Source: Patescibacteria group bacterium (GTDB lineage: Bacteria > Patescibacteriota > JAQUNI01). From it: DNA of 64,000 bases. The notes beneath the pieces are model-generated. The model did no database searches, was not told where the DNA came from, and saw nothing but the letters and a program-made list of their open reading frames with translations. The DNA is taken from positions 335,451-399,450 of the forward strand of contig JAQUNI010000001.1 of NCBI GenBank assembly GCA_028717685.1. The letters run 5' to 3'. The translations under genes were made by a program, and so were the position numbers. Below, piece after piece: positions 1 to 60,803 of this stretch; position 1 is the stretch's first letter; every line of letters starts with the position of its first letter.

Positions 1-83
1 CCAGGACCAAGAATTTCCAGGATAGACTCCTCTTTTTGAGCAGGAGGAGTATTTTGGTTGACTTTATTTTTATTGTTGAACAT
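1..83 (-). CDS. Partial ORF running off the window start (N-terminus MFNNKNKVNQNTPPAQKEESILEILGP...); function unknown. It lies downstream of the VirB4-N-like gene on the same strand.
   Basis: The reverse complement of 1..83 reads ATG (81-83) followed by an open frame to the window edge. It is not in the ORF track because it has no stop codon within the window. Confidence 0.3.
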   Translation of the reverse strand, partial: MFNNKNKVNQNTPPAQKEESILEILGP

Positions 84-206
84 CAAAACAAATTAAAAAT
101 GAAAAATGAAAAATTTAAAATTACAATTTAAAATGTAAAAAGAATTGGCTTGAAAGATTTTTAATTTTGCATTGTGGTTTTTCATTTTGCATTTTGCATT
201 TTTAAT

Positions 207-959
207 TTATACCACATTCAACTGCTTAATGTCGGTCATCGGCTGATTTTTGGAAGTCGCGGGATTATAAATATTATAAAATAGCTCAATCAATTCTTGG
301 GTGTTCAGGCGCACGCTTTTCAATCCCATGGCATTCAGAAGCCCCTCCACTCGCGCCACGCGTTGATTCAATAAACTATTATATTTTTGAAATTGCTTCT
401 CATTCTGGCTGATCACCTCCGCGGGACGCAATAAATTTCTCATTCTTGCCATCACACCCAATTCTCTCGCTTCCGTAAAGGCGTAAGGAATCACAATGTA
501 AAAACGTTTCCGCATAATCTTTCCCCACTCTACCAGATTGCTCACATATTCCCGATATTCAATGGTCTGAATACGCAAAAGTTCATTAGTCTGCTTTTTC
601 TCTAATTCTTCCAAACTTTTTAGATAACTTTCAATATTGAGTTCCCTGGACTGAATCACAAACTGCATTGGAAAATCTAAAGAGTTGAGAAAATTCTGGT
701 AACCATAAATAACGGAATTTTGTTCTTCCACGCTCTTTAAGGAAAAATTTAAGCTGGAAACCATCAAAATCGCGCGCAAGGTGCCATCCCGCAAAACCAC
801 GGTATTGTCTCTGACACCCGTAATATCTAAAAACTGCTGGGTGGATTTCTTGGTTTTTGCCTTCGCCAGTTTGGGCGAATGAAGGTTCTCTCTCTTATTT
901 TGCGGCTCTTTATTGCCACTTGCAAGGTTCTCTTTTGGATCTTTGTTTTTTGAAAACAT
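207..959 (-). CDS. VirB4/TraC/PrgJ N-terminal-domain-like protein (250 aa); possibly a stand-alone or split conjugation ATPase N-terminal domain.
   Basis: Six-frame ORF. The block FLDITGVRDNTVVLRDGTLRAILMVSSLNFSLKSVEEQNSVIYGYQNFLNSL..FVIQSREL follows the conserved N-terminal pattern of VirB4/TrbE proteins (LxDGS..xxI.G..F.L..EE.....N.L..L). No Walker motifs were seen in this ORF. Confidence 0.45.
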   Translation of the reverse strand: MFSKNKDPKENLASGNKEPQNKRENLHSPKLAKAKTKKSTQQFLDITGVRDNTVVLRDGTLRAILMVSSLNFSLKSVEEQNSVIYGYQNFLNSLDFPMQFVIQSRELNIESYLKSLEELEKKQTNELLRIQTIEYREYVSNLVEWGKIMRKRFYIVIPYAFTEARELGVMARMRNLLRPAEVISQNEKQFQKYNSLLNQRVARVEGLLNAMGLKSVRLNTQELIELFYNIYNPATSKNQPMTDIKQLNVV

Positions 960-1166
960 GAAAGCTTAAAACTTAAAAAGTAAAGCGTAAATAAAAATTT
1001 AAAGCTTGGTGATGAAAATTTTGTAACTTGTAACTTGAAACTTGTAACACAAGGGATGGAATACTTGAGTTACAGGTTATAAGTTGTAAGTTATAAGTTG
1101 TAAAAAATATGGTTTTACATTTTGCGCTGCTGTTTCGCATTTTTATTTTACTCTTTTACGCTTTCA

Positions 1167-1574
1167 TTACGATGTCTCTAGCGCCTTCTCAATATGAGAT
1201 AAACTGCCACGTTTCATATGGGCCTTGACTACCTCTCTTTTCTCCGCGCCTTCGGCAAACGAAACCTTGATCGTATTCTTAGCGGTTAACTTGCCTGTTT
1301 CGCGGCGCCAAATCCGGATCGGAGGCTTTAAATAGAAACCAAAAACAGCTAAAACAAAATAAATAAACGGCCGATCATTGACTTTTATAAACGCGAAAGC
1401 GGAAGTGATCGCGAGGGTCGGAATGGTTATGACAATAAAGAGAGATAAATCAAAGAAAAACCAATAAATCAATTCCACGGCGGCGGCGGCGAGAAAATAA
1501 AGAAACTGCTTAATGGTGAGGGGTCCCACCACCTTGTCTTCTATGTCAATAAATTGGGGAACAGTAGCTTGCAT
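1167..1574 (-). CDS. PrgI-like small membrane protein (type IV secretion / conjugation system component, VirB3-like).
   Basis: 135 aa with two adjacent hydrophobic helices (FLYFLAAAAVELIYWFFF, LSLFIVITIPTLAITSAFAFI) and a basic C-terminus. The architecture and size match the PrgI family, and it sits next to a VirB4-N-like gene. Confidence 0.5.
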   Translation of the reverse strand: MQATVPQFIDIEDKVVGPLTIKQFLYFLAAAAVELIYWFFFDLSLFIVITIPTLAITSAFAFIKVNDRPFIYFVLAVFGFYLKPPIRIWRRETGKLTAKNTIKVSFAEGAEKREVVKAHMKRGSLSHIEKALETS

Positions 1575-1611
1575 AAAAACAAATTAAAAATGAAAAATGA
1601 AAAATCACAAT

Positions 1612-3063
1612 TTAGTATTGAAATTTTCTGCTCGCGTCGGCAATAGCGTTGAATTCCTCTTCGGTCAAATAAGGCTCTCCTTGCATCATCCTCCTTTTGG
1701 CAATCTCCGTGATCGTCTTGCCTTGAGCAATGCTTTCGCCGCCGATCATAATATATAATTTATAAGGCCCCGAGCCTCGCCAAGCCTCTATACTCTGAAA
1801 TCGGGCAAGTTCGCTCTTACCCACCAAACTATTCACCTGCGCGACGAGACGACTTGACGCTTCGCTGGGCTGACGAATTTTAAAATTCTCCAAACCCAAA
1901 TTTTTAAGGTCGTTAACACTCTTGATTGCCTCAATGGCAAGCCCGGCATTTTGCTTTTCTCCCGCGGCAGAATGAGATTCTAATTTCCGCAAAACATCAG
2001 TAACGACCGTCTTCTTCCCTTCCGGCAGAGAAAACATGGGGGAAGGAACGTCACTCCCCCTGCTCGCCTCGCTAACGCTCTCGCCTCGCTGACGCTCTAG
2101 CGTAGCGGGTTGGCGTAGCGAGCCCGAGGGGGAGGGAGCGGCGCTCACCTCGCGTGAAGACTGTCCAAAAATCGGCGCGGGAGCTTCTATTCTAGAAATA
2201 TCTTTCTTGTCTTGCAAAGGAGCGGACTCTATCAGATGTTTGCTATCTAACGGGGTAAAAATTTTATCCACTGGAAAACCCTGCACATCGGGAGGAACAA
2301 CGGGGAATATAGGTGACTCCTCCCACGCCAAATTTTTGGCAGGAGAGGGCGGAGCTTCTTTTTCCTCTAGAACAGAGGACTTGGTCTCTTCTTCCCGGGC
2401 TCTAAAATCAACATCCTGCTGCGAATTATTCTTCTGGCTATTCTGATACTTGCTCAGAAAATCCGCTTGCCCTTCTTCGGGAAACTCTTCTTTCAAAAGT
2501 TGGGTGATTTGAGCCGCTTCCGCCTGTGAAAGTCCTGCCCCTCCCCGCTCCTCGGGCCGGGTTAGGGCGTCTTCGGTTTCTAATTCGTCCCGAATATCCT
2601 TAATATAAATAAGAATACTGCCTTCAAGACGCGATTTCTGCAAAGGAGACAATTTCAACTTTAAATCGCTCAAAACGCTATCCACAAAATCCCTGATCGC
2701 CCCCGCGCCCAATTTTAACAGGGTTGATTTTTCGGCGGCGGTCTTGGATTCTGGCAAGCCCTCTGGAGGGACGGGAACTTCGCGATCCAAGGCTTGTTTT
2801 TTTTGCTCTGAAGGAATATTGATTACTTTCTCTATAGCCCGGCTTAAATCAACACTTTCCTCAAGCGGCAGATTCAGGTTAATTCTTAGAACGCGCGGCA
2901 GATCAGAATTTTTAATCTCCCCGCTCGCGAGCTTCCCTAAAATTCTCGCTTGCAATCTTCTATCTTTTTCCGAGAGACGAAAAGCATCGCCTATCTTCGC
3001 GAGGCGCGAGGCTGTTTCACGGGAAGAGAGAAGGGTATTAAGATTTTGAGGGAAATTGGTCAT
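1612..3063 (-). CDS. Hypothetical protein (483 aa). Paralog of 3624..5018; carries an in-frame GC-rich repeat insertion.
   Basis: Long ORF. Its N-terminus (QNLNTLLSSRETA) resembles the N-terminus of the 464 aa neighbour (RDLNTLNSEEIT). The Pro/Ser/Gly-rich segment ...SAAPSPSGSLRQPATLERQRGESVSEASRGSDVPSP is encoded by the repeat at about 2040-2150. Confidence 0.6.
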   Translation of the reverse strand: MTNFPQNLNTLLSSRETASRLAKIGDAFRLSEKDRRLQARILGKLASGEIKNSDLPRVLRINLNLPLEESVDLSRAIEKVINIPSEQKKQALDREVPVPPEGLPESKTAAEKSTLLKLGAGAIRDFVDSVLSDLKLKLSPLQKSRLEGSILIYIKDIRDELETEDALTRPEERGGAGLSQAEAAQITQLLKEEFPEEGQADFLSKYQNSQKNNSQQDVDFRAREEETKSSVLEEKEAPPSPAKNLAWEESPIFPVVPPDVQGFPVDKIFTPLDSKHLIESAPLQDKKDISRIEAPAPIFGQSSREVSAAPSPSGSLRQPATLERQRGESVSEASRGSDVPSPMFSLPEGKKTVVTDVLRKLESHSAAGEKQNAGLAIEAIKSVNDLKNLGLENFKIRQPSEASSRLVAQVNSLVGKSELARFQSIEAWRGSGPYKLYIMIGGESIAQGKTITEIAKRRMMQGEPYLTEEEFNAIADASRKFQY

Positions 3064-3150
3064 TTTAGTTCAAAGTTCAAAGTCAAAAGCCAAACTGAAG
3101 ATTGAAAATGACAATTTTTAATTTTTAATTTTTAACTAATTCTTAATGTA

Positions 3151-3526
3151 TTAATTTTTATTGTTTTGTATTATGGAGATTATCTTAGAAAACATTTTAG
3201 CGTACCCTTGGACTTCTTGCCACAATTGATGGCACTCTTCTTTTACGCTCTCATCGGCTTGAGCAAGCATTCTTAGCCAGTGCATTTGTTTCTTTGGCTT
3301 CTTTCTTACAAATATGGATTTTATTCTTAAAATCCTTCCTTGAAGAAGCTCCGTTAGCTTCCATATAATTTGCCCCTATTGAGGTGCCTGAACGAATTAA
3401 TTGATTTATCAACGGCGAGGCAATGGGATTCTTGCAAGCTTTCTTTGATAAAATAATAATTTCTTCACCCAAACGCTCAAATTTCTCTTCTAAATCATAA
3501 TTAACATCATCTTTAGTTTTCTGCAT
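3151..3526 (-). pseudogene. Four-helix-bundle protein (23S rRNA intervening-sequence protein family), frameshifted.
   Basis: The 91 aa ORF 3251..3526 has the family core ...QLIRSGTSIGANYMEANGASSRKDFKNKIHICKKEAKET. The expected C-terminus HWLRMLAQADESVKEECHQLWQEVQGYAKMFSKIISIIQNNKN continues in another frame down to 3151, implying a 1-nt frameshift near 3280. Confidence 0.55.
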
Positions 3527-3623
3527 GCAATAATTCGTTAATTCAACAAAAATTAGTTAAAAATTAAGAAATAAAAATTAAAAATTGTCTTTAAACTTTG
3601 AATTTTGAACTTTTAACTGAATT

Positions 3624-5018
3624 TTATTCCGCCCAAAATGGGCTATTTACAATATAGCTTCTTACTTCCGGCGATAATTGGTTAAAGTTCTGACGGATAA
3701 TTTGCCGCAATCGCCCTTCTTCAACAGGATCTCCTTTTTGCGCCGCGGCTTCTAAAATAGAAATCGTAATTTCTGAATTTGAGGTATCCACTAACTTTTC
3801 GCTCTGAACAAAATTTTTGTTCAGCAATGGAGAGGAAAATCCATCCCCCTTTTGGAAAGGAGAGTTGGGGGCGGGAGTAACACTCCCCCTGCCCGAGGGG
3901 GAGATGGAGGGGGTGGGAGGTTCCGGCATTCTCTGTGATAATAAATCCGTAGGCTCATTTGGAACAGATGTTTGAGACGGCAATGGCTCTTCTCTTCCGG
4001 CAAATGCCGCGGGTCTTTTAATCTCCTCTGTTGTGGGCGGAGCAAATGACGCGGGCTGCTTTGAAACGGCTCCGGCGGTATAGGGAGAAGAGGCGGCACT
4101 CCCTCTGTCTTGAGGGGGGAGAAAGACACTCCCCCTGCTCGCCTCGCTAAAGCTCCGGCGTAGCGGGCCCGAGGGGGAGGCGGAGGGGGAGGGAGTCTCC
4201 GCGGCTAAAGGCGCCCTGTTTTGCGCTTGGGGAAATCTCGTTTCTCCGTTCGCGGGTCGAATATCCCGTAAATCCTGCGGACCTTGATAACCTTGAGGCG
4301 GTCGGTTCGCTCCTTCCGACGCAGTTTGAGCCAAGGCTTGACCCAATCTCACCTGCTTTCTTTCTTCTATACTCACTCCCTGTTCTTGCGTCATTTCCAT
4401 CTCCGCCATTACTCCCAAAGGCTGCAACGCATTATAAAGCTTTAAAAGCTTTGCCAAAATTATTTTATCCCCTTCTGCTAGCTTTTGAACCTCTGTGTTC
4501 TTATTTAAAAAATCCCTTTCCTCAAGCTCTAAAAGCTGCGGCCGACCCGGATAGCTGTGGATAAAGAGGGCGAGCCACTCGCCAATCGTTAAAGAACCTA
4601 TTTTTTGTCTGTTATCGCGCAAGGCTTGCACCAATTTTTTACAAAGCTCTTCCCGTGGTCCAGTCGGGTTGACCCAAAGTAAAGCTTCCAAACGACCCAA
4701 TACAATCTCCTCATCCAAAGGCAAAACCTCTTTAATCTCGCCTTGAAACAATTGAATAATCTCACTGTCCCTCTGCGCCGGCAAACTGACATAATTAACT
4801 AGAGTCGCCCATTTTTTTAGTTGACCTAAAATTTCCGGCTTCGCGCTAAGCTCTCTTCTTTGTAGGACTTCTTTAAACTCTCTGGACAATTTAAAAGCTT
4901 CCTTATCTTCGCAAAAATAAATAATTTCCCCGACCTGCCGGTTCACTTCCTGCAAAACCTCTGGCCGCGTTATCTCTTCTGAATTAAGAGTGTTTAAATC
5001 TCGCATAGATATTATCAT
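3624..5018 (-). CDS. Hypothetical protein (464 aa). Paralog of 1612..3063, with two in-frame GC-repeat insertions.
   Basis: Long ORF. The segments PSPSASPSGPLRRSFSEASRGSVFLPP and PTPSISPSGRGSVTPAP are encoded by GC hairpin repeats at about 4095-4200 and 3880-3925. Confidence 0.6.
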   Translation of the reverse strand: MIISMRDLNTLNSEEITRPEVLQEVNRQVGEIIYFCEDKEAFKLSREFKEVLQRRELSAKPEILGQLKKWATLVNYVSLPAQRDSEIIQLFQGEIKEVLPLDEEIVLGRLEALLWVNPTGPREELCKKLVQALRDNRQKIGSLTIGEWLALFIHSYPGRPQLLELEERDFLNKNTEVQKLAEGDKIILAKLLKLYNALQPLGVMAEMEMTQEQGVSIEERKQVRLGQALAQTASEGANRPPQGYQGPQDLRDIRPANGETRFPQAQNRAPLAAETPSPSASPSGPLRRSFSEASRGSVFLPPQDRGSAASSPYTAGAVSKQPASFAPPTTEEIKRPAAFAGREEPLPSQTSVPNEPTDLLSQRMPEPPTPSISPSGRGSVTPAPNSPFQKGDGFSSPLLNKNFVQSEKLVDTSNSEITISILEAAAQKGDPVEEGRLRQIIRQNFNQLSPEVRSYIVNSPFWAE

Positions 5019-5053
5019 TATTGTCTATTTCGTAATTAAAGATCATTTCCAAT

Positions 5054-8000
5054 TTAAATTCCGCCCCCCATATTCAGCCGATCTTCGTCCTGACGTAATG
5101 TCTCCGCTCTAGAACTCTCTCCTACTGCATCTCTATCTCTACCTCTACGATCACCAGCACCAGCTATTGATCCTCCCTCACCGCCTGTCTGGCCTACTTT
5201 ATCAAAAAGTTTCTTTAGAATTCTTCTCATATCCTGCGCCTTATCCCTTCTCACCTTGGCAGCCCCTTCCTTCCCCTTCTTTTCTAACCTTTCAGCTTCC
5301 TTCTCCATCTCATCAGTGATACCCAAAAGATCCTTCTGGTTCTCTATATATCTTAAGGATTCAATTAGGCGCGGCTGGGCCCAGCTGCCCAATCTATCTA
5401 CATCTTCATCGGTCAAAGGTTCAACCTGCCCCCTACTGCCAGGAGTAAGACCTAAATATTTAGCCCCAGGCGGCGCATTGGCATATTTTATCTGATCTTC
5501 TTTGGACATATCACTAATACTCATATCGCGGAAGAGGAGACCGGGGTGCCACCTTTTTTGATAAGTGCTTCTCTTTGCTTGTTCAGAGCTAATAATTCTT
5601 GTCCGATTTTGATTATAAGTATCCACGACTGTAGCGACCCCTTCGCGCAATTTCTCATCGGCGATAAGAAAGTTCCCTTTTTTGTCTTTTCTTTTTAAAA
5701 TCTCTTCTTTGGAGTAACCAAAATTGTCCAGCATTAAGTTAGACAGTTTTTCAAAAGAAGTATCCACTCCCTCGACTTTTAATTTTTCCGCCTTTTTGCG
5801 CAAATATTTTTGAAACACAGCCGTCTTCTCTAAAAAAGTTACCTGCCCTGTTGCATTTTCCCCTTCTGCTAATTCAATCTTCTGCAGATCTTCATCATCT
5901 TCAGCCGTGTTAAGAGAGCGATTATCAGCCTCATCAAACGTGGTGGAATAAGAGAATTGAGGATAAGTTTGCTTCATTGCTTCAGCAATATCATTCGCGA
6001 ACATCGAGGCACGATCCGAATCCCCGAAGAGCCTTCTTAAGACCGCCGTATCTGAACCCATCACCGCCTTTCCTCCGGAAAACTTCCGCGCGTACTCCGA
6101 ACCCTTCAAAAGATCGTTAATATCACCTCGAGATAAAATTACCTCCAAAAGCCCCTGGACTTCGGCGGTCAAAGCCTGATCTGAACCAAGCCAACCCTTG
6201 CCTTCCATCTCTTTCAATAACTCGTCCAAACGGGTATAAAGAGCTTCTGTTTGAACATCGCTTTCATTAAGAGAGCTTGCCACTTCTTTCACTGCCGCTC
6301 TCTCCGCGCCGCGAGCATAAAGCTTCTCCCGCTCATAACCCGGACCCTTTTTCTGAAAAAAAGCATGCCAGCCGGCAAGCCTCGGTTGCAGTTCTGTAAT
6401 CCGTGGACCATAAATTTCTTTCTCTCGCCGTTTGCGCCGTGCCTCTGTTACCGCCTTCCACACCTTAGGGCTAACCCATTTCAAATACTTCCCTGCTCTG
6501 CTTTCCATCGCCTTGCCCCAACCATACTTTCCTAAAGCCTTAGCTCCCGCCGCCGCGGGTTTACCCATTGTCAGCCATTCTGACCCTGTTTTCCATAATT
6601 TATTCGCGCCTTGCAGAATTCCGGAAGCGCCCATAACGCTCGCTTTGCGCGCCACATAAAGACCCGCCATCATAAAAGCCACAGCGAAAAGAAGCTTCAT
6701 AAAAACTTGGGGAGAAGCGCCTTGCGCCGGCAATCGCCTTAAAGCCTCGCCTTCTGACAATAAACTCTCTAATGTTCCGGCTTTAGATTTAAAATGAGCG
6801 TCTAAATCCGCGCTTAAAACAATCACCGATAAAGTAATGCAAAAAATCATCACCGGCGCGAAGAAAGCGGTGCGCAAAAAAGTATTCCAAAAGCCAGAGA
6901 CGATTTTCTTCTGCCCGACCGCCATCGCGAGGTAAATCAAAGGTGAAATCGCGGTCATTAAAAGCAGAACCACAATCCGGACAGCCAAAAGGAGCGCGGT
7001 CGCACCATAAACAATTACCGCCGACAGCATATAAAGAATCATTAAAATCTGGGCTCCCAAGACAGAGGCGAGAGTAGTAAAATCAGTGGAGCCGGCAAGC
7101 CTGTCCACGCCAAAAAGGCCTCCAAGACCCGCGGCTCCGAAAAGCGCCTTAATCGGAGCAATCTTATTCGGATTGAGATTCAAGAAAATATCCGACAAAA
7201 TTTGTGAGAAATCAACCGCCACGCCGCAAAGCACCTTGGAAAAATTGATTAAAACCACGCCCGCTAAAAAACCAGGCAGCATTTTCTTTAAACTGCGCTC
7301 CTGAATGCCCAAGACCGTGCAAAAGGCGATATAAAGCAGAACGACGATAAAGAACATATTGGAAAAATCGCGCAAGAACCGCCAGACTAAATCCACAATC
7401 CCAAAATCAATTTGGCTGAAATTAAGCACCCACTCCAAGAAGGCGAAAATAAGAAACAAAAGACCCTGCAAAACACCACAGACGACAAGAGCAATAATGC
7501 CAAAAACCACAGAGACCACCAGCCCAATGGAATTGTTAAAAATTTTCCACGCGACCTGGCTTACTAAACTTCCTGCATTGCAATCATATAAAGGTTGAAT
7601 ATTATTCTTAAAGTCATCAAGGTTATTCTGATATTCTGGGATTTGACCAATATAAAAATTTTCTCCTCTACCCGAATTTACATCCCGCTCCATAAAACAC
7701 GAAGCCGGATCAATAGTATCCCGTGGAGAAGCGCAGTAAGCCTTCTCTCCTATATTAATCTGATAACCTGCGGTTCCTACTGTATAGTTGATTGGTATAG
7801 TTACCACAAAAGCGGGAAGCTCGCGCTCTATTTTAGGAGTGCAGGGTTTTTTGGAATCCAAACAAACCTGGGGCAATATTTGCCCGCCTTTTTCATAGAC
7901 CCCCTTTCCCCCGCCGCAAGCATTGGCTATGGTTGCGCAGGTAAAAACAACAGCAGTTTGAGTACTGGAAACCGAAGAGGGAATCTCTGCACAAAATGCT

Positions 8001-8425
8001 GGCGCCTTACAACCCACTTTTCCTGAATTAAAAAGAAATTGATATGACTTCGCTTTGTCAGCGGCTGGAATTAGGTTGATATCAAGAAGAGAAGGAGAAA
8101 AAAGACTGAAGTTAAATTTTTTTTCTCCAGCATTTCCATAACCATTGCACTTCTCACAATCATCTGTACCTACTATACATAGGTTATTGTCTACGCTTGC
8201 ACAGTAATTTTCTTGTACCTGTGTAATACCACTAGTATAAATACTAGAAGCGCAGGCTTTATTTTGATTAGTCTCACATGCCGTCTCTCCCTTTGTCAGT
8301 GGATCGTTAGCACCATCACATGGCACCATTTCGGCCTGCGCTGTCCCAGATCTGCTAAACAATCCCAAGCCCGCGAGGCAGAGAAGAATCAATATTTTCC
8401 AAAAATTTTTGGTTTTAATTTGCAT
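5054..8425 (-). CDS. VirB6/TrbL-like polytopic membrane protein with a Cys-rich extracellular N-domain and a long charged cytoplasmic C-domain (about 1124 aa counted from Met29).
   Basis: Signal peptide MQIKTKNFWKILILLCLAGLGLFSRSGTAQA. About 330 aa with many Cys, then at least six hydrophobic helices over about 300 aa (VirB6/TrbL-like core), then a 500 aa Lys/Glu/Arg-rich tail. The track ORF extends to 8509, but the signal-peptide Met at 8425 is the likelier start. Confidence 0.5.
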   Translation of the reverse strand: MQIKTKNFWKILILLCLAGLGLFSRSGTAQAEMVPCDGANDPLTKGETACETNQNKACASSIYTSGITQVQENYCASVDNNLCIVGTDDCEKCNGYGNAGEKKFNFSLFSPSLLDINLIPAADKAKSYQFLFNSGKVGCKAPAFCAEIPSSVSSTQTAVVFTCATIANACGGGKGVYEKGGQILPQVCLDSKKPCTPKIERELPAFVVTIPINYTVGTAGYQINIGEKAYCASPRDTIDPASCFMERDVNSGRGENFYIGQIPEYQNNLDDFKNNIQPLYDCNAGSLVSQVAWKIFNNSIGLVVSVVFGIIALVVCGVLQGLLFLIFAFLEWVLNFSQIDFGIVDLVWRFLRDFSNMFFIVVLLYIAFCTVLGIQERSLKKMLPGFLAGVVLINFSKVLCGVAVDFSQILSDIFLNLNPNKIAPIKALFGAAGLGGLFGVDRLAGSTDFTTLASVLGAQILMILYMLSAVIVYGATALLLAVRIVVLLLMTAISPLIYLAMAVGQKKIVSGFWNTFLRTAFFAPVMIFCITLSVIVLSADLDAHFKSKAGTLESLLSEGEALRRLPAQGASPQVFMKLLFAVAFMMAGLYVARKASVMGASGILQGANKLWKTGSEWLTMGKPAAAGAKALGKYGWGKAMESRAGKYLKWVSPKVWKAVTEARRKRREKEIYGPRITELQPRLAGWHAFFQKKGPGYEREKLYARGAERAAVKEVASSLNESDVQTEALYTRLDELLKEMEGKGWLGSDQALTAEVQGLLEVILSRGDINDLLKGSEYARKFSGGKAVMGSDTAVLRRLFGDSDRASMFANDIAEAMKQTYPQFSYSTTFDEADNRSLNTAEDDEDLQKIELAEGENATGQVTFLEKTAVFQKYLRKKAEKLKVEGVDTSFEKLSNLMLDNFGYSKEEILKRKDKKGNFLIADEKLREGVATVVDTYNQNRTRIISSEQAKRSTYQKRWHPGLLFRDMSISDMSKEDQIKYANAPPGAKYLGLTPGSRGQVEPLTDEDVDRLGSWAQPRLIESLRYIENQKDLLGITDEMEKEAERLEKKGKEGAAKVRRDKAQDMRRILKKLFDKVGQTGGEGGSIAGAGDRRGRDRDAVGESSRAETLRQDEDRLNMGGGI

Positions 8426-8689
8426 TTTGGCAATCCCCAAATGTGATTTAAGATCGTTGGCTCCCCAGTACACTCTTAGGGCGGAACTATGGAGCCAACA
8501 AGTTAACAATAACCCAAAATTCCCCTCCTAGTCGTTGAATTGAAAACTAAAAGGATTTTTCTTTTCCTTTTTATTTTGGATAATTCTTCTGGCTCTATAA
8601 TTTATTTTGCGCTTTTCGCTTTTAACTACGGCTTTTTATACTATACCACAAAAAAACAATCTCGTAAAAACGAGATTGTTAGTTATCCA

Positions 8690-8975
8690 CATAAAATTTT
8701 GAATCCGAGCGTTGGCTCCACACAGACTTAGACCCCTCCCACCCTCCCCTTGGTAAGGGGAGGTGAAATGCGCTCCCCCTGCTTTCCAAGGGGGGAGAAA
8801 GATTCTCACTCCCCCTGCCAGGGGGGAGGCGGAGGGGGAGGAAGCTTCAGAACCCCACCTAACCTCCCCTTTGAAAGGGGAGGTTAATGCACACTCCCCC
8901 TGCCCGAGGGGGAGATGCCTGCCCGCCATCGCTTCGCTTCAGGCGAGGCGGGGGGGAGGGAGTAAAAAGACGCGA
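8690..8975. repeat. Tandem cluster of GC-rich hairpin repeats (CCTCCCCTT-N-AAGGGGAGG, CTCCCCCTGCCCGAGGGGGAG, GCCCGCCATCGC..GCGAGGCGGG).
   Basis: Several perfect or near-perfect short palindromes sit in an otherwise AT-rich context. The same units recur at more than 12 other sites in the window. Confidence 0.8.
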
Positions 8976-9017
8976 AAATAAAAAACCCAGTATATACTCT
9001 TGAAGTATTATACTGGG
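8976..9017 (-). terminator. Rho-independent terminator of the FGE-domain lipoprotein gene.
   Basis: On the minus strand the sequence reads CCCAGTATAATACTTCAAGAGTATATACTGGG followed by TTTTTTATTTT. The identical module is found at 18218..18261. Confidence 0.6.
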
Positions 9018-9028
9018 ATTGAGAAATT

Positions 9029-9880
9029 TCATTTGGTTGCGTCCATGGCGCAACGAAAGCCAAGAGTGATGTCCGTGAGAATGGGAGCGAGACCAAAGCG
9101 CATAGCTACGCGAAGGCGATGCTGGTCAGAAGAGCTATATTGCCACTCGCCACCGCGCAACACAGTCCATATTCCAGTCTCTGGTCCCGTTGGATTTGAT
9201 TCTGGCGATCTTAAATAATAATCAGAATCATACCAATCAGTACACCACTCGTAGGCATTTCCTGCCATATCATACAAACCATACCCATTCGGAGCAAAGC
9301 TACCAACAGGGAATGTCAATTGCGGTTTACCAAGGCCACTATATACATATACATCATCATAAGTCAGAGTATCTCCCCACGAATAACGTTTGCCGACAAG
9401 ACCACCCCGAGCCGCCTTTTCCCATTCAGCTTCTGTTGGGAGTCGCTTACCAGCCCACTCCGCATAAGCCTTAGCATCATACCATGATACTCCGACTACT
9501 GGATGATCTGGCCCATTGAGAACTGGGTAATTCCAATATTCTGGTGTTGTTTTGTGTCCAGTTGCATCCATGAACTTTTTATATTGTGCATTAGTTACCT
9601 CATAAACATCCATATAAAAGGCGTCAAGATAAACTGTATGCACTGGTCTTTCATCGCTATCGCCTTCATTAAATGAATCGCCCATCTGAAATTCTCCCGC
9701 AGGGATGAGAGCCATCGACGCACCGTCTGAACTGAATATCTCATTTGTTCTCACCTGAAGATTAGAATCTTGAGATTCCAGTGGATTCTGACTGTCTTTA
9801 CCACAACCAACCAACATAACCGCAAGAACCGTAAAAGCCAAAATCACAAAGAAATACTTATAATACAACATCTTTATCAC
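9029..9880 (-). CDS. Lipoprotein with a formylglycine-generating enzyme (FGE-sulfatase / SUMF1-like) domain, 283 aa.
   Basis: Signal peptide plus lipobox (LVGCG). FGE-sulfatase hallmarks are present: YMDVYEVTNAQYKKFMDATGH, RLPTEAEWEKAARGG, GLYDMAGNAYEWCTDWY, and the C-terminal RGG..RCA motif. Confidence 0.8.
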   Translation of the reverse strand: MIKMLYYKYFFVILAFTVLAVMLVGCGKDSQNPLESQDSNLQVRTNEIFSSDGASMALIPAGEFQMGDSFNEGDSDERPVHTVYLDAFYMDVYEVTNAQYKKFMDATGHKTTPEYWNYPVLNGPDHPVVGVSWYDAKAYAEWAGKRLPTEAEWEKAARGGLVGKRYSWGDTLTYDDVYVYSGLGKPQLTFPVGSFAPNGYGLYDMAGNAYEWCTDWYDSDYYLRSPESNPTGPETGIWTVLRGGEWQYSSSDQHRLRVAMRFGLAPILTDITLGFRCAMDATK

Positions 9881-10124: not shown

Positions 10125-10240
10125 TGCGCCTTTAGGCGGGGAGAAAAGAGGGGGTGGGAGCGGCACTCCCCCTGCTCGCCGCGCTAACGCTCCGGCGTAG
10201 CGAGCCCGAGGGGGAGATGGAGGGGGTCTAAGGGCGCGGG
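10125..10240. repeat. GC-rich palindromic repeat element (long form: ACTCCCCCTGCTCGCCGCGCTAACGCTCCGGCGTAGCGAGCCCGAGGGGGAG...).
   Basis: Near-identical copies occur at 2053-2140 and 4135-4200. Confidence 0.8.
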
Positions 10241-16254: not shown

Positions 16255-17751
16255 TTATTCTTTGTTATCAGCGCTATATTTCTTAGATAATTCATCTAAA
16301 TTCTTCTGCATTAATACTTCTAAACTGTCAAAAGACTTCAATTTGCCGATAATAGCATCCGCCTGTCCGGTATCGCTGCTGCGCAAAGAATTTTCATCCG
16401 TCACCTCCTCATAGATGCGGATAATGGTTAAAAAGATTTTATGGATTTCTTTAGTATCCCGCGGCACGGCGATTTTCAGCAGCTCCGCATCAATATTCTT
16501 GAGCGCGTTATAGGTTTGGTTAATGACAGTATAATCATTCTGGGCAATCTGATTTTTTAAAGTAGCGGCGTCAATACTTTGTAAACCGGAAAAATTTTTT
16601 TCAAAAATACCATTGACATCTTGGAAATATTTTTGGATGTCTTCTGCTTTACTGGTATCAAAAATCTTGAGTTCGCTATCAGAGATTTCCGCGGGCGCGG
16701 AAACAGGAATCGCGTTAAACATATCCTGCATTGAACTTTGCATAGAGTCGGAACTTAAAATCTTTTTCTGCATTTCCAGTTTTCCCGAGACATCCACATT
16801 GCCGGACTGCGCCTTAGCAATATCTTCCTCAGACAAACCCAGCTTTTGCAGGGCGCTGTAATCATTGCCGGTTAAATTGCTAAAGTCCGTTTGCCCGCCT
16901 TGGTCCAGCGCGCATTTGCCGCCGGAAGCGCCGGCATCAACCGAACCAGCAGCGCACGAAGCGCTGGTCGTGGACGCGGAGGCAACAGCGGGAGCGGCAC
17001 CAGAGGCGGAGGGGGTGGGAGCAAAACTCACCGCCGGATTTTTCTTCACGGCTGGAGTCAAAGGATCATAGCCATTTTTTACTTCCACGCCGTCAGGATA
17101 ACCATCGCCATCCGTATCCTTCTGGAAAGGATTAGTAGCGAGTTTCTCTTCAATCTCGTCCGAGAGTCCGTCTTGGTCAGAATCAATGCTCAAAGGCAAA
17201 GAATTCGCGGTAACATTGTTATTGCCTGAAGTATTAAAAACACGGCTGTCAGTTTTGGCGGCGATTTGAGGCACGATTGCCCCTCCCTCTTCTTGCGCGG
17301 TCTCTGTCAAAGCCGCGGCTTGCACTGTCGAAATGGAATTTCCCTTTCCGCTTTCGCTCGCTAATGTTTCGCTCATCCTGTTTAAGGAAGCCTGCGTCTC
17401 TTCAAGATTAATTTTGCGGTCTAGAAAAATAAAACCCCCAATAGCGCCGGCGATTATGATTAAAATCGCGACAGTGACTACTTGGAGGGTTGACCTTAAA
17501 ACTGTTTTGGTTTTTTGATTTTGAAGAAAATTAAAACCCCGCACCACTTTCGGTTCAGGGCTTGTAGGATTTGGTTCTTTAATACTCGCGTCTTCAGAAT
17601 AACCGCGATACCAATTTTCTAAATAAGAAGGCAGTCCTCCCGGTAAAGCCGTTTCCGGCGCATAGCTTCCCGCGTTACTAAAATTGGGGTTCGGATTATT
17701 TAAAACCTCAGAATGCCCGGGATAACCCGAGAAATCAAAATGATTTTTCAT
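16255..17751 (-). CDS. Membrane-anchored protein with calcium-binding (thrombospondin type-3-like) Asp-rich repeats, 498 aa.
   Basis: Single transmembrane helix (VVTVAILIIIAGAIGGFIFL) followed by DSDQDGLSDEIE...DTDGDGYPDGVE repeats. Confidence 0.6.
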   Translation of the reverse strand: MKNHFDFSGYPGHSEVLNNPNPNFSNAGSYAPETALPGGLPSYLENWYRGYSEDASIKEPNPTSPEPKVVRGFNFLQNQKTKTVLRSTLQVVTVAILIIIAGAIGGFIFLDRKINLEETQASLNRMSETLASESGKGNSISTVQAAALTETAQEEGGAIVPQIAAKTDSRVFNTSGNNNVTANSLPLSIDSDQDGLSDEIEEKLATNPFQKDTDGDGYPDGVEVKNGYDPLTPAVKKNPAVSFAPTPSASGAAPAVASASTTSASCAAGSVDAGASGGKCALDQGGQTDFSNLTGNDYSALQKLGLSEEDIAKAQSGNVDVSGKLEMQKKILSSDSMQSSMQDMFNAIPVSAPAEISDSELKIFDTSKAEDIQKYFQDVNGIFEKNFSGLQSIDAATLKNQIAQNDYTVINQTYNALKNIDAELLKIAVPRDTKEIHKIFLTIIRIYEEVTDENSLRSSDTGQADAIIGKLKSFDSLEVLMQKNLDELSKKYSADNKE

Positions 17752-17939: not shown

Positions 17940-18215
17940 ATAAAAATGAATAATCCCCGCACCTTTAGGCGGGGAGATATCTGTTGGCTCCATAGTCCCC
18001 GAGTGAAGCGAGGGGTCCGCCCGCTAATGCCTGAAGCCGCGCCCGACAGCGCAAGACGCAGTCGTTGCGGGCGGGCGCAAGCGATGGCGGGCAGGCTGTG
18101 GAGCCAGAATGCAAGACGGAGGTATTAAAGATAAAAGTATTAGCAGAAAATGACGGTCTGCATTTTGGCTCCATAGGGCTAGCGCCACTATGGAGCCAAC
18201 TATTCAAAAAAAGGC
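17940..18215. repeat. Repeat cluster containing TTGGCTCCATAG-N11-CTATGGAGCCAA palindromes and a GCGATGGCGGGC unit.
   Basis: There is a perfect 12-bp inverted repeat at 18165-18203. Related GGAACTATGGAGCCAAC units occur at 8480-8500 and 36362-36380. Confidence 0.7.
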
Positions 18216-18217
18216 GC

Positions 18218-18261
18218 GAAAATAAAAAACCCAGTATATACTCTTGAAGTATTATACTGGG
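18218..18261 (-). terminator. Rho-independent terminator of the second FGE-domain lipoprotein gene (duplicate of 8976..9017).
   Basis: The same hairpin-plus-T-run module is present, and the roughly 90 bp flanking sequence is shared with 8965-9065. Confidence 0.6.
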
Positions 18262-18272
18262 AATAAGAAAAA

Positions 18273-28414: not shown

Positions 28415-30199
28415 TCAGTCTGCCTGATTCACTAATATTGTAACTTCTGGTACAGAGTAAACTCTAAGATTATAATACCCTCCTCCTTTTCCCCAATCTT
28501 TCGTGAACCCCCAGCCATTCCAAGAAAGAACATTTAAATTTTGGGAGGTTTTACTTTCAGGATGCTCGTATGCTCCTTCCAAAGCGACCAGTTCTGATTT
28601 CTGATCCTTATTGAAATCTCCCGCCTCAATCTCTAAAAGAGGTTTATCTAAAATTGACGAGCCCCAGATTAAATCAAGCGCGCCCTGCCCGCCATCGCGA
28701 GCTTCAGGCGAGGCGGGCGTGGCTCTTTTCAGATTATATAAAAACAAGTGGCTTCCCCAATGTTCTTTGTTTTCCGTATTCGCAAGGGGCGAGTTCTCCG
28801 CGTAATCCCCTTTTTTCCACAGGGCTAAAGCAAGGTCGGGTTTGGCGTCGCCGTTAAAATCGCCAACCGTATAATCATTAACCACCCAAGCGGGATCGCT
28901 TTCCCAAATCTTTGTTTCATTTTGAAAAACTTTAACCAAGCCTTGATCCAAAGTAATCTTTTCTTCTTTGGTATCCTGATCTAAATCTTGATTAAGGAGA
29001 GAAGGAATCCCCGCAAAGACAGCCCCGCTTTTCAAGCCTAAACTTATCCCTTCCTGATACGCTCCATTTTGAAAAGAAAAGGAAGGCTGTTCGTCTAAAG
29101 CAATGCCCAACATTTTAAGGAGCCTGTTCTGTTCGCTTGGAGAAACAAACTGGGGCTGACTGTAATCAAAAATTTTGACGGGTAAAAAATTCAGCTCTAC
29201 TACGCCATCGCGGTCCAGATAAATGTCCGCGACCATCCCCTCCCGCGTCTCCTCACTCCACATCTGGTCAAAAACAAAATTACCCAAAGAATAGATAATA
29301 TATTTGCCTTTATATTTTTCCACGGTCTGAAACCAATGCGGATGATGGCCAATCACTAAATCCGCGCCCGCGTCAATCGCTTGGCGGGCAAAAGCGATTT
29401 GCCTCTCGTTGGGGGCGCGCTTATACTCTGTGCCCGCGTGCATAGAAACAATCACCAAATCCGCTTCTTTTTTCGCTCGCGCTAAATCACTTTTTAAATC
29501 CTCTGCGTTCATTATCGCCGCGCCGGCGTTATTCTCCTTGGCTTCGGTGTTGCCAGCGTAAGTATAAGCTAAAAAAGCGATTTTAAGATTATTTCTTTCC
29601 ACTATTGCCGCTTGATGCGCCTTTTCGCGACTCAATCCGGCGCCAATGCCTTGAATGCCCTCTTGCTCTAATAATTCCAAAGTTTTTTTAAGACCTTTAT
29701 CCCCTTGGTTCATAATATGGTTATTGGCTAAGGATAAAACATCAAAACCGACCTTGGTCAGCGCTCCCGCGCATTCCGGATCCGCGCGAAAAACCATACT
29801 GGGAGTATACACGGGCTCACCGGCAAGCAAGGGCGACTCTAAATTGCCGAAAGTGATATCCGCGTTTTGCAAAAATTGCCCCATTTTCCGAAAAGGATAT
29901 TGATAATCATTATATTCCACCATCTTTTGGCCTACATTGCGCGAAAGCATCATATCGCCCACTGCCACGAGATGAACTAAAGGATCTGCGGGAACGGGCA
30001 GACTCGGCTTTTCTAATACTGCTTCACTTTTCTCTTTAACTTCCGCGGACAGAGGTAATCTTTTTCGGCTCTCTTTAAAGTAAGTGAACGGCTCGTTAAT
30101 AGGCAAAATTCTAAAAAGCGCCACCCCAATAATGACAATAAGCGGAACGATGGACCAAAATAAAATTTTGGAAAACATAAAAAATAAATCAAAAATCAA
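28415..30199 (-). CDS. CapA family (poly-gamma-glutamate synthesis / metallophosphatase) protein with a C-terminal FG-GAP-like extension.
   Basis: LVAVGDMMLSRNV, FGNLESPL, DVLSLANNHIMNQG and GHHPHWFQ (metallophosphoesterase motifs). The C-terminus has DFNGDAKPDLALALW and DFNKDQKSELVALEG repeats. Confidence 0.75.
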   Translation of the reverse strand: MIFDLFFMFSKILFWSIVPLIVIIGVALFRILPINEPFTYFKESRKRLPLSAEVKEKSEAVLEKPSLPVPADPLVHLVAVGDMMLSRNVGQKMVEYNDYQYPFRKMGQFLQNADITFGNLESPLLAGEPVYTPSMVFRADPECAGALTKVGFDVLSLANNHIMNQGDKGLKKTLELLEQEGIQGIGAGLSREKAHQAAIVERNNLKIAFLAYTYAGNTEAKENNAGAAIMNAEDLKSDLARAKKEADLVIVSMHAGTEYKRAPNERQIAFARQAIDAGADLVIGHHPHWFQTVEKYKGKYIIYSLGNFVFDQMWSEETREGMVADIYLDRDGVVELNFLPVKIFDYSQPQFVSPSEQNRLLKMLGIALDEQPSFSFQNGAYQEGISLGLKSGAVFAGIPSLLNQDLDQDTKEEKITLDQGLVKVFQNETKIWESDPAWVVNDYTVGDFNGDAKPDLALALWKKGDYAENSPLANTENKEHWGSHLFLYNLKRATPASPEARDGGQGALDLIWGSSILDKPLLEIEAGDFNKDQKSELVALEGAYEHPESKTSQNLNVLSWNGWGFTKDWGKGGGYYNLRVYSVPEVTILVNQAD

Positions 30200-33689: not shown

Positions 33690-33878
33690 AGTTTATTCAT
33701 CATTGCGAGCAGTTCCTTGCACTCCCCTTGCCTTGAGCGGGGAGACAAGAGGGAAAGGGAATGGCTCTCCCCCTGCCCGAGCCTGCCTGCCGGTAGGCAG
33801 GGGGGAGATGAAGGGGGAGGGAGGAAAAATTGTAAAGAAAGACCCCACCTCGCTTTGCTCGCAACGACGGTCATATCT

Positions 33879-36469: not shown

Positions 36470-36540
36470 TCGGGATTTATTCTTGATAATTTTATTAAGA
36501 TCATTGTCTCGCTTTGCGAGATCCCGCGTAGCGGGACAAA

Positions 36541-53107: not shown

Positions 53108-54571
53108 ATGAAAATTAAGACTAAAAATAGCATCACTTTTTTGAAATATTTTTTCTTTTTTCTTTTTGCCTTATCTATCCCCTTCCAGAAACGGCATATC
53201 TTTTTTTATTACCCTATTGCGGGAGAATTTAATGAATGGACGGCAATCAGTATTTATGTTTCAGATATTCTTTTATTCTTAAGTTTGATTTTTTGGCTTG
53301 GCGAACTTGTTATTTCTAGAAATCATTTAAGATTACGGAATATTATAACCCCTCTTTATCTCCCCTTGTCAGGGGAGAAACATACCCCCCTGATAAGGGG
53401 GGTTAGGGGGGTCTTAAATTATTTCCGTGAGGGCATACTAAATCTTAAAAAGAAAAATAAATTATTGATTATTGGTTACTGGCTGCTGGTTACCCTGCTC
53501 GCCATTGCTTTTTTTTCCTTAATTAATGCCCAAAATTTAAACATTGCCCTCTTCCGCCTATTAAAATTAGGAGAAGTAATTCTCCTATTTATTTTTATTG
53601 TCTCCAACTTTGGCTCCAGAAAATTACGGTTGCTTTTATATTTATTTTTACTGACTAGCGGAATAGCACAGGGAATAATTGCAGTAGGACAGTATTTTCA
53701 CCAACATTCTCTGGGTCTCAAAATTTTAGGCGAGAATGACCTTGCCCCTAACATAATTGGCGTGGCAAAGATAGTCGTCAATGGCGGCAAAATTATCCGG
53801 GCTTACGGCGCCTTCCCCCACCCCAACATTTTAGGCGGCTTTTTAATCGCCACTATTTTATTTTGTTTTTACCTCTGGACCAAAATACCAAGAGTAAAAT
53901 GGGGCAAATTTCTAAAAATCATTCTTCTTTTTATTCTTTCTCTCTTTACCATCACCATCACCCTCACCTTTTCCCGCACGGCTTGGCTAGGGCTCATCAT
54001 TGCTTTATTAGGCTTGCTCATCATTAACCTCCACAAAATCAAAAACTACGCTCCCCCACTAGGTATCATTATTATTACCGCCCTAACCTTATTTTACTTT
54101 CTCCAACCCCAAATTCTAACTCGTCAAACGATTAGTGATTCTTCTGGGGATTTCGCTCTGTCCAATCGCGCGTTTTTAAACCAAATTGCTTTGCTCGCAA
54201 TTGCCAAACACCCATTTTTAGGGGTTGGCATAGGCAATTTCGTGCTAAGCATCTCCGATTTTACGAAGGCGGACCTGCCGGCTTGGCGCTATCAACCAAG
54301 CCACAATCTCTATTTAGCTATGGCTTCAGAGACGGGGCTCCCCAGTTTATTAATCTTTCTAACCTTTTTATACCTAACCATCACTCACGCTCTCGGGCAG
54401 ATTAGAAACGACCCTGAAATCGGAATTATATTTTGGATTTTTATTGCTTACCTCTTTATTAGCTGCTTAGACCACTACTTTTATGATCTCCAACAAGGAA
54501 TGCTCTTATTTTGGCTTATCTTAGGGATTATTTGGGCAATTTCTTTACAAAAACTAAATAATATTGCATAA
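53108..54571 (+). CDS. O-antigen ligase/polymerase-like polytopic membrane protein.
   Basis: At least 10 transmembrane helices with a central loop carrying FSRTAWLGL (Wzy_C-like). An in-frame GC-rich repeat at 53375-53420 encodes LSGEKHTPLIRGVRGV. Confidence 0.6.
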   Translation: MKIKTKNSITFLKYFFFFLFALSIPFQKRHIFFYYPIAGEFNEWTAISIYVSDILLFLSLIFWLGELVISRNHLRLRNIITPLYLPLSGEKHTPLIRGVRGVLNYFREGILNLKKKNKLLIIGYWLLVTLLAIAFFSLINAQNLNIALFRLLKLGEVILLFIFIVSNFGSRKLRLLLYLFLLTSGIAQGIIAVGQYFHQHSLGLKILGENDLAPNIIGVAKIVVNGGKIIRAYGAFPHPNILGGFLIATILFCFYLWTKIPRVKWGKFLKIILLFILSLFTITITLTFSRTAWLGLIIALLGLLIINLHKIKNYAPPLGIIIITALTLFYFLQPQILTRQTISDSSGDFALSNRAFLNQIALLAIAKHPFLGVGIGNFVLSISDFTKADLPAWRYQPSHNLYLAMASETGLPSLLIFLTFLYLTITHALGQIRNDPEIGIIFWIFIAYLFISCLDHYFYDLQQGMLLFWLILGIIWAISLQKLNNIA

Positions 54572-54764: not shown

Positions 54765-54897
54765 AATTACGAAATTTCCGTAGAATTATAAAATATTCCT
54801 CCCCTTGGGAAGCGGGAGACCAGGAGGGGTCTCAAATAAATATAACTCCCACCCCCTCCATCTCCCCCTCAGGCAGGGGGGGTGAGTTTCGTAATTC
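54765..54897. mobile_element. MITE-like element with terminal inverted repeats AATTACGAAA / TTTCGTAATT and an internal GC-hairpin cluster.
   Basis: Terminal inverted repeat at 54765-54774 versus 54888-54897. The subterminal ATAAAATATTCCTCCCC and the internal ...CTCCCACCCCCTCCATCTCCCC...GTGAGTTTCG are shared with the copy at 58254-58484. Confidence 0.6.
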
Positions 54898-56831: not shown

Positions 56832-57122
56832 AAAAAATATGACCATCATCAAACTAGATGATGGTTTTTTTATTTGTAGTATTGCGAAGCTCATTACTTC
56901 TACCTTCCGCAAAGAAATTTAACAACCCACCCCTAACCCTCCCTTGTCAGGGAGGGAGAAAATCTTTCCCCCTGCCTACCGGCAGGTAGGCAGGGGAGAA
57001 GTTTTATCCTCCCTTGGCGAAGTAATATTCCCAATAATGCTTACAAAAATAATAAAAACAGGTTTCAAACCTGCTTTTTGCTCTAAGAATCACTGAAAAT
57101 GATTTTGAAGATAGGGGTTTTG

Positions 57123-60591: not shown

Positions 60592-60803
60592 TTTATAGAC
60601 CTTTTGCAAAATAACCTTTTCTACTGCAATTGCTAGATTTCGGCTGCAAATGTTTCAGGGCTCGTCGCTGTATTTTAGAGTAAAATACAGCTTCCTCCCG
60701 CCCGCCTCGCCTGAAGCGAAGCGATGGCGGGCGCGGCGCCCTTCAACATTTTCGCTCGAAATCCGTCAATTTCGTAACGAAAAAATTATTTCACAAAAGG
60801 TCT

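Follow-up and report, generated by a model that had tools for sequence, protein, structure and literature searches.

The 64,000-nt stretch of a Patescibacteria group bacterium analysed here (contig JAQUNI010000001.1, positions 335,451 to 399,450; the whole stretch is called the window below) carries modular, short (~20–100 nt), GC-rich palindromic repeats both between and within its genes. Comparison with near-identical genomes showed that copies are gained, lost, nested and swapped at intergenic and genic sites alike, and that the surviving genic copies keep the reading frame, use stop-free frames only, and are found either in a disordered linker or in a loop at the protein surface. It is likely that these repeats are selfish, probably mobile or recombinationally copied, elements and that the genic copies are a filtered subset of them. 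The original prediction, made from the letters of this DNA, was that a repeat littering the intergenic DNA also sits in frame inside two genes and is translated with them, possibly under selection for frame-preserving insertions; the observation is confirmed, its interpretation is supported, and the phenomenon turned out to be wider than claimed.

Repeat anatomy and the genic sites

When the window was scanned for hairpins that are perfect and GC-rich, the matches, together with the copy in gene 1, whose loop exceeds the limit of the scan, came to five genic sites (gene 1, gene 2 twice, CapA, and Wzy) and about eight intergenic clusters. The window has a G+C content of 42%, and about 77% of it is coding, so that the hairpin elements are enriched several-fold in intergenic DNA yet are not excluded from genes. 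The two principal genes and the elements at the genic sites are as follows.

1612..3063, minus strand: gene 1, 483 aa, a hypothetical protein in a type-IV-secretion-like cluster; uninterrupted open reading frame (ORF)
2046..2137, plus strand: family-A element with a doubled 30-nt inner loop, in gene 1; 81 nt from stem to stem (2054–2134)
3624..5018, minus strand: gene 2, 464 aa; uninterrupted ORF
3880..3920, plus strand: short family-A unit in gene 2, made of a hairpin (3883–3903) and the tail ATGGAGGGGGTGGGAG; encodes PTPSISPSGRGSV
4091..4192, plus strand: 102-nt composite insert in gene 2, corresponding to 34 codons (SPSASPSGPLRRSFSEASRGSVFLPPQDRGSAA); RNA fold −45.6 kcal/mol
28686..28724, plus strand: family-B hairpin (GCCCGCC..GGCGGGC) of 39 nt, corresponding to 13 aa (RATPASPEARDGG), inside the CapA gene (28415–30199, minus strand)
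53342..53420 (approximate bounds), plus strand: two small hairpins, CTCCCCTTGTCAGGGGAG and CCCCCCTGATAAGGGGGG, with a G tail, inside a Wzy_C/O-antigen-ligase-like gene (53108–54571)

The core of family A is CTCCCCCTGC-loop-GAGGGGGAG followed by the tail ATGGAGGGGGTGGGAG. Across the family, the stem CTCCCCCTG / CAGGGGGAG encloses a variable loop and is followed by a G-rich tail, (A/G)(T/C)GGAGGGGG(T/A)GGGAG. The stem-to-stem lengths are 21, 51, and 81 nt, the 30-nt steps coming from an inner hairpin, TCGCCNCGCTAANGCTCCGGCGTAGCGNGC; some loops hold GCCTGCCTGCCGGTAGGCAGG instead. Family B has the form GCC(T)GCCCGCC...GGCGGGC, and small hairpins (for example CCTCCCCTT-GNNA-AAGGGGAGG and CTCCCTCTGTCTTGAGGGGGGAG) join both families in clusters. 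The 102-nt insert in gene 2 illustrates the modular construction, consisting of a small hairpin (4099–4121), a spacer, a long family-A hairpin (4129–4179), and a tail (4180–4192). The basic unit of 37–39 nt is G+C-rich and for this reason contains no stop codon in any of the six frames, which makes its survival in genes likely.

The 52-nt consensus given in the original prediction has two exact matches in the window, one in gene 2 (4128–4179) and one intergenic (10165–10216), and a loop-less short form, CTCCCCCTGCCCGAGGGGGAG, occurs at 3883–3903 (genic) and at 8894–8914 and 54862–54882 (both intergenic); shuffled sequences gave no match to either. The statement that the same repeat is common between genes therefore holds for the wider family, with about 11 family-A copies in the 64-kb window (~0.2 per kb), but not for the exact 52-nt variant, which has a single intergenic copy here.

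Genes 1 and 2 lie within positions 1–9000, a type-IV-secretion-like cluster that includes PrgI, TraC-like, and VirB4-like proteins and a 1151-aa membrane protein. Their products are identical to proteins of a Patescibacteria metagenome-assembled genome (MAG) at NCBI (locus tags PHW01_01745 and PHW01_01755, on a 722-kb contig), where both genes are annotated as intact. Both ORFs run uninterrupted through the repeats, and translation gave the peptides that had been quoted for them (GESVSEASRGSDVPSP, RRSFSEASRGSVFLPP, and SPSGRGSV). The minus-strand reading of the element at 2046–2137 encodes ..APSPSGSLRQPATLERQRGESVSEASRGSDV.., and its RNA fold is −53.6 kcal/mol (z −3.2). Peptides predicted across element junctions include SFSEASR, GSVFLPPQDR, ATPASPEAR, and ALPLSEGEVEGVGAR. 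According to homolog comparison, the N- and C-terminal domains of both genes are conserved and the middle is variable; in gene 1, the variable linker between the domains carries the repeat. The AlphaFold model of gene 2 consists of a helical N-domain (aa 1–237), a disordered linker (aa 237–413), and a helical C-domain (aa 419–463). Both inserts (aa 276–309 and 366–380) are located in this 175-residue coil linker, whose predicted local distance difference test (pLDDT) values are 30–45, between the two confident helical domains.

The two genes had been taken for paralogs. This does not hold: BLASTP aligned only the repeat peptide, and a profile–profile comparison of the two families with hhalign gave a probability of 4.6%. 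The absence of paralogy strengthens the interpretation as a repeat, since unrelated proteins share a stretch of DNA that is identical at 49 of 52 positions to an intergenic copy. It also bears on the idea that the shared peptides are a protein-level motif, that is, a low-complexity linker or a trace of paralogy, with the nucleotide similarity only a consequence. The peptides are Pro/Ser/Gly-rich like natural linkers, and paralogy was part of the initial description; nevertheless, this explanation is effectively refuted, because there is no similarity outside the repeat, the identity reaches synonymous positions, and the same DNA is found intergenically and in three different frames and orientations that yield unrelated peptides.

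Filled and empty sites in close relatives

The DNA of the window was compared with that of a syntenic contig, L001 (88–92% DNA identity), which belongs to a Candidatus Doudnabacteria MAG going by the name given to its protein, and of two further contigs, L003 and L218. In gene 2, the 102-nt insert at 4091–4192 is clean and is missing in L001, where the empty site reads GCGGAGACTC/CTTCTCC (the slash marks the position of the insert). The short A unit at 3880–3920 is common to the window, L001, and L003, and in L001 it is adjoined by a 42-nt small hairpin that the window does not have. In gene 1, a single site displays three states in three genomes: L003 has a family-B hairpin only, L001 has that hairpin and a 45-nt short A unit, and the window has the doubled-loop A unit. 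Turnover was also observed in the spacer upstream of the TrbL-like gene, where the window exceeds L001 by a 32-nt family-B module set into an A-unit tail and by a 31-nt short A unit, and L001 has extra segments of 106 and 28 nt.

Copies are also exchanged in place. The differences between the window and L001 in a shared A unit are exactly the substitutions that turn one common subfamily, ..GAGATGGAGG.. (loop CCCGAG), into another, ..GAGGCGGAGG.. (loop CCAGAG), a pattern suggestive of gene conversion more than of point mutation. In L218, the ortholog of gene 2 has the doubled-loop variant, of which about 70 nt are almost identical to the copy in gene 1 of the window, a non-homologous gene. The same ortholog is without the linker between the two element sites, which would be consistent with a repeat-mediated in-frame deletion.

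The original prediction extended the phenomenon to CapA and the O-antigen-ligase-like gene. Both segments are real, but their hairpins are not those of the repeat at 2040–4200: the CapA element belongs to family B and the Wzy element to a third family. The repeat-encoded segment of CapA (28686–28724) was confirmed as ATPASPEARDGGQ. The insert is 39 nt long in the window; an ortholog of 91% identity has 33 nt, and the insert is absent from a 73%-identical ortholog and eleven more distant homologs. In the AlphaFold model of CapA (mean pLDDT 81), apart from the N-terminal tether, pLDDT values fall below 50 only at residues 495–504; these residues form a loop between two strands and coincide exactly with the insert. 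With an RNA fold of −46.2 kcal/mol (z −4.6), the Wzy element is located between transmembrane helices 2 and 3. Its segment of about 30 aa, with loose boundaries, is missing from the nearest homologs found (at most 54% identity), and a metagenome search for related loci gave none. This segment is probably a lineage-specific in-frame insertion, as judged from the alignment.

Taken over all sites, the repeat segments in gene 1, gene 2, CapA, and probably Wzy proved, as the original prediction had anticipated, to be lineage-specific in-frame insertions, and the segments encoded in gene 2 and CapA are predicted by AlphaFold to be disordered loops or linker. The coding repeat indels are all multiples of 3 (102, 42, 45, 39, and 33 nt; 5/5), whereas only one of the eight intergenic indels in the same genome pair is (32, 31, 106, 28, 6, 1, 1, and 1 nt; the exception is 6 nt). 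Stop-free frames are the only ones used. The short unit occurs in genes in three of its six open frames, one read in reverse orientation (PTPSISPSGRGS) and two in forward orientation (TPPARGGDGGGG and LPLPEGEMEGVG); the three frames not used are also open and encode Cys/Trp/His-rich or poly-Pro peptides. The Wzy element has one open frame out of six, and that frame is used. The suggestion of frame-preserving selection is supported by these constraints on length and frame.

The same comparisons bear on two explanations in which no new protein segment would be made. The first holds that the genes are pseudogenes, chance fusions of ORFs across a stop-free GC-rich spacer, or assembly chimeras. Such repeats can indeed fuse ORFs mechanically, as at 33717–34412, and an ATG stands directly 3′ of the repeat in gene 1. 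We nevertheless regard an artefact or decay of this kind as hardly credible, because homologs without the repeat are single proteins that cover both flanks and possess the conserved domains at the N and C termini, and the same gene architectures recur in independent NCBI, ENA, JGI, and Logan assemblies and are called intact by the Prokaryotic Genome Annotation Pipeline (PGAP). Nor are the genes pseudogenes, as the reading frame runs on into conserved domains downstream of the repeats. The second holds that the elements are cut from the transcript or bypassed by the ribosome. The hairpins are very stable, with RNA folds of −16 to −54 kcal/mol, and genomes of the Candidate Phyla Radiation (CPR) are rich in intervening sequences; in the window itself, the 16S rRNA gene contains large insertions, and a group I intron is present. 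Removal or bypass would, however, leave length and frame free, in contrast to the constraints described above, and a scan of the window with Rfam placed no intron or other RNA family at the repeat sites. Non-translation is thus very improbable, although a little less so than an artefact.

The same unit in other genomes and its interpretation

A metagenome scan for the tail motif gave 89 loci, including about 43 distinct instances of the full hairpin with its tail. These full instances lie on contigs of 33–59% G+C (31–33% for the Cas4-like loci described below), and 13 of the 43, representing 11 independent sites, are in ORFs that extend for at least 70 codons on either side. In comparison with solved structures, the large subunit of exodeoxyribonuclease VII (XseA), on a contig annotated as Patescibacteria, shows a 15-aa gap exactly at ALPLSEGEVEGVGA (against 8txr), and RecJ shows a gap at TPPAQGGDGGGGS (against 8y30); in Obg, 34 aa replace 5 (against 5m04), and in IleS, 33 aa replace 6 (against 1ile). 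Fold compatibility is thus based on AlphaFold models for the CapA loop and the gene-2 linker and on gaps against solved structures for these other proteins. Further hosts of the 37-nt unit are two methyltransferases, an FG-GAP/YkuD protein, and a Cas4-like PD-(D/E)XK nuclease. LeuS (L157) was rejected as a further case: the variable segment in which the element lies exceeds that of T. thermophilus LeuS by only about 4 aa, which does not demonstrate an insertion. Every host with a name, in this small and biased sample, falls within Patescibacteria (Candidatus Doudnabacteria, Candidatus Uhrbacteria, and two 'Patescibacteria group' MAGs). A scan of genome contigs for the bare hairpin (ACTCCCCCTGCN{4,34}GGGGGAG) was too loose, with many phyla among the matches listed; adding the tail left CPR genomes.

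The Cas4-like nuclease provides an example of polymorphism at the strain level. Within one 90%-identity cluster, six members have APTPSTSPSGRGRE and four have KKGQ, and the element is present or absent among proteins that are more than 93% identical. One allele has an extra 18-nt hairpin nested in the loop.

From these patterns we envisage the following course. The repeats would be repeatedly copied into new sites and into each other, possibly by transposition on single-stranded hairpins, gene conversion, or template switching. Genic copies would survive only where the frame is kept, stop codons are lacking, and the position is a tolerant loop or linker. They would then be transcribed and translated with the host protein, adding flexible Ser/Pro/Gly/Arg-rich peptides, and several copies within one gene would promote in-frame deletion or replacement and thereby variation in linker length.

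Several points weigh against the selfish-repeat reading. No transposase was found in the window among the matches listed (25 of 48 Pfam families, 40 ORFs), and no target-site duplication was found at six filled/empty pairs. The arms of the hairpins are inverted repeats, but the unit ends on one side in the G-rich tail, which is not palindromic; with no transposase or target-site duplication found, and no terminal inverted repeat seen beyond these arms, mobility is deduced from presence/absence patterns only. Such patterns could equally arise by precise deletion, gene conversion, or template switching. The Cas4-like case is 45 nt replacing 12 nt, not a clean insertion, and it shows no target-site duplication. 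Translation is likewise deduced, from frame conservation and conserved downstream domains, and the fold z-scores of the short unit are unremarkable against shuffles. Finally, the 37-nt unit is nearly identical across lineages of 31–59% GC, which exceeds the conservation expected of a purely neutral parasite and hints at a recognising factor or a function.

In a different explanation, the hairpins are functional signals for a conserved host factor, acting in uptake or recombination like DNA uptake sequences (DUS/USS), in RNase action or RNA stability, or as interdomain translational pauses, and the genic copies are selected, not just tolerated. DUS/USS are short motifs that a competence receptor recognises and that are conserved throughout a family. 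In favour of a signal, the unit is nearly invariant across Doudnabacteria, Uhrbacteria, and other Patescibacteria of very different GC. Moreover, the copies occur in both orientations, leave no target-site duplication, and show a gene-conversion-like swapping of variants at orthologous sites; the genic copies lie between domains, and copies in the window lie in a type-IV-secretion or competence-like cluster. On the other hand, the distribution is patchy even among near-identical strains, which argues against a site-specific function, the genes are unrelated and three frames are used, and there is no consistent orientation relative to the flanking genes. The density is also lower than that of known uptake sequences, which is about 1 per kb, and no receptor or factor was identified. 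We therefore consider a functional signal unlikely, though less so than an artefact or non-translation.

Within the selfish-repeat reading, a bolder version can be put forward tentatively, although we doubt it on balance: the 37–39-nt unit may be one family shared, probably horizontally, across much of Patescibacteria, colonising essential genes (such as IleS, XseA, RecJ, and Obg) and kept near-invariant at 31–59% GC by a conserved recognising machinery, such as an HUH-type single-strand hairpin transposase or a DNA-uptake/recombination system. If true, no palindromic element that codes for protein and spans a whole phylum would have been known before it, and it would keep supplying CPR proteins with new loops and linkers.

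Rickettsia palindromic elements (RPEs) were reported by Ogata et al. in Science in 2000. For the Rickettsia gmk gene, the activity of the product with its insert and without it has reportedly been compared. The claim that such segments are unusual needs to be qualified in the light of these elements, which are palindromic repeats located in frame inside housekeeping genes (PMC10969869, PMC2229807). No description of such elements in CPR/Patescibacteria was found in the literature searched, the coverage of which is incomplete, so that an earlier description is possible. As with RPEs, the present elements are dispersed stem-loop repeats of a reduced-genome bacterium, found intergenically and in frame in unrelated, often conserved housekeeping genes; the protein fold can accommodate the inserts, and several families exist side by side. 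RPEs, however, measure 105–146 bp, are confined to Rickettsia, and have terminal inverted repeats of about 12 bp. The elements here are built from a 37–39-nt unit into composites of at most about 102 nt, are G+C-rich in an AT-rich genome, consist of a hairpin and a G-rich tail, and are modular, nested, and common to several Patescibacteria lineages. They are thus a functional match to RPEs but no member of the RPE family, being set apart by size, composition, architecture, and host.

Repetitive extragenic palindromes and their paired forms (REP/REPIN) are mobilised by REP-associated tyrosine transposases (RAYT; Y1/HUH), carry a GTAG or CGTC tag at one end, and are extragenic (PMC3733652, PMC5581495). 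The present repeats resemble them in being imperfect palindromes of 20–40 nt that are high in copy number, clustered, and without target-site duplication. They differ in that family A begins with [A/C]CTCCCCC ([A/C]CTCCCCCTG) after variable upstream bases and has no 5′ GTAG/CGTC tag, GTAG occurring only within the optional inner loop (GGCGTAGCG), and in that a sizeable fraction of the copies is genic. No RAYT gene was seen among the Pfam families listed for the window, which covers 64 kb of a contig of about 722 kb. In-frame genic copies are also known for bacterial MITEs (miniature transposable elements with inverted repeats), including ERIC (enterobacterial repetitive intergenic consensus), the 107-bp Correia element, YPAL, and Coxiella QMITE (PMC2229807, PMC5896051). 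The likeness lies in small non-autonomous repeats with open frames fused to host ORFs; MITEs, in contrast, are 100–200 bp long, are AT-rich for the most part, and bear terminal inverted repeats, TA ends, and target-site duplications; beyond the inverted repeats formed by the hairpin arms, the six filled/empty sites showed no such feature. Yeast GC clusters and the double-hairpin elements (DHEs) of Allomyces are GC-rich mitochondrial hairpins. Coding palindromes have been described in the mitochondrial genomes of Nematomorpha (PMC6649704). In these cases, too, GC-rich hairpins invade AT-rich reduced genomes, including coding regions, without breaking the frame, but the genomes are organellar and the sequences apparently unrelated.

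Until now, palindromic repeats that code for protein have been regarded as a peculiarity almost confined to Rickettsia. The CPR, too, have reduced genomes and live as symbionts; if they offer a second case, independent and apparently widespread, this would suggest that the invasion of coding sequences by stop-free hairpins is recurrent in small AT-rich genomes. The inserts inflate and diversify CPR proteins and complicate orthology and alignment; they also give rise to length differences between strains that could serve as markers, and they can fuse or extend annotated ORFs. Because the unit is nearly identical in distant CPR lineages, it offers a handle for finding the copying machinery.

Intergenic copies and neighbouring features

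The intergenic copies in the window are the following.

8743..8958, plus strand: cluster of about six hairpins of families A, B, and C, with the 32-nt and 31-nt modules absent from L001
10120..10238, plus strand: composite element just downstream of the stop codon of the gene at 10242–16121; carries the second exact 52-nt consensus
17954..18105, no strand assigned: GC-rich, family-B-like hairpins
33722..33830, plus strand: composite family-A element with the loop insert GCCTGCCTGCCGGTAGGCAGG, upstream of a likely true ATG at 33879
54799..54884, minus strand: family-A element in reverse orientation
56937..56996, plus strand: family-C-like hairpin followed by a family-A-like stem with a GCCTACCGGCAGGTAGGC loop
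58293..58465, minus strand: cluster of family-C hairpins and a reverse-orientation family-A element
60696..60740, minus strand: family-B hairpin, the reverse complement of the copy at 8917–8953

The ORF at 33717–34412 was not accepted as another case of a genic copy, since it is a mechanical ORF whose probable start, at 33879, comes only after the repeat. An isolated family-A tail (GGCGGAGGGGGTGGGAG) without a hairpin is present at 16995–17020 in the gene at 16255–17751 (minus strand). It encodes APTPSASG in the usual frame inside a low-complexity linker and is probably a decayed genic element. Elsewhere, a 1.9-kb metagenome contig (L129) has three head-to-tail copies of a 42-nt unit, CTCTCCCCCTGCCAGAGGGGGAGGTGGAGGGGGTGGGAGCGG, at 551–640, indicating that the unit can also amplify in tandem. 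A Hyphomicrobium MAG (L122, 5911–5950) and a Bacteroidales MAG (L044) have the same architecture with another sequence, a C-rich/G-rich hairpin followed by a G-rich tail (e.g. CCCCTCGACGGGGAGGTGTAAGGGGTGGGGTG), and the design may therefore recur in other phyla.

The segment of about 300 bp between genes 1 and 2 (3196–3494; ORF 3251–3526, minus strand) holds a small 23S_rRNA_IVP/Avd-like four-helix-bundle gene (PF05635); it is missing from L001 and is present in L218 as a 125-aa gene. Two paralogous genes of the formylglycine-generating enzyme (FGE)-sulfatase/C-type-lectin-like type (9029–9880 and 18273–19814, both minus strand) have a common conserved 3′ end (GFRCAMD*), a highly divergent stretch just upstream of it, and identical terminator hairpins (8985–9020 and 18229–18264). 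Their architecture recalls the targets of diversity-generating retroelements. A link between the hairpins and such retroelements, considered in view of these genes and the Avd-like gene nearby, was set aside, since no reverse transcriptase came to light in the window and unrelated housekeeping genes are among the hosts of the elements.

Other repeats and RNA genes were also noted. AT-rich quasi-periodic repeats (AAATTAAAAATGAAAAATGAAAAAT and relatives, with a period of about 7–8) flank many genes and occur in most intergenic regions, for example at 81–206, 1572–1631, 3083–3175, 3545–3611, 21276–21365, 48846–48992, and 59526–59724. The 16S rRNA gene (37040–39080, minus strand) is 2041 nt long against a model of 1533 positions, and the portion of the alignment inspected reveals at least two insertions, one of about 170 nt and one of about 175 nt. 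The group I intron (27892–28141, minus strand) is located in a region without a long ORF. The window also has five tRNA genes. A family of small hairpins, TTGTCCCGCTATGCGGGATCTCG, has copies at 25222–25254, 25593–25625, 36494–36526, and 37637–37669, two of them 100% identical; three of the four adjoin tRNA genes, the other being within the 16S rRNA gene. The tRNA-Arg gene at 52868–52942 is bracketed by complementary GC-rich arms, CCCGCCCGCCTGGCTCG and CGAGTCGGGCGGG (52848–52866 and 52943–52962), which resemble the family-B stem and may form a processing stem or mark a tRNA within a hairpin element.

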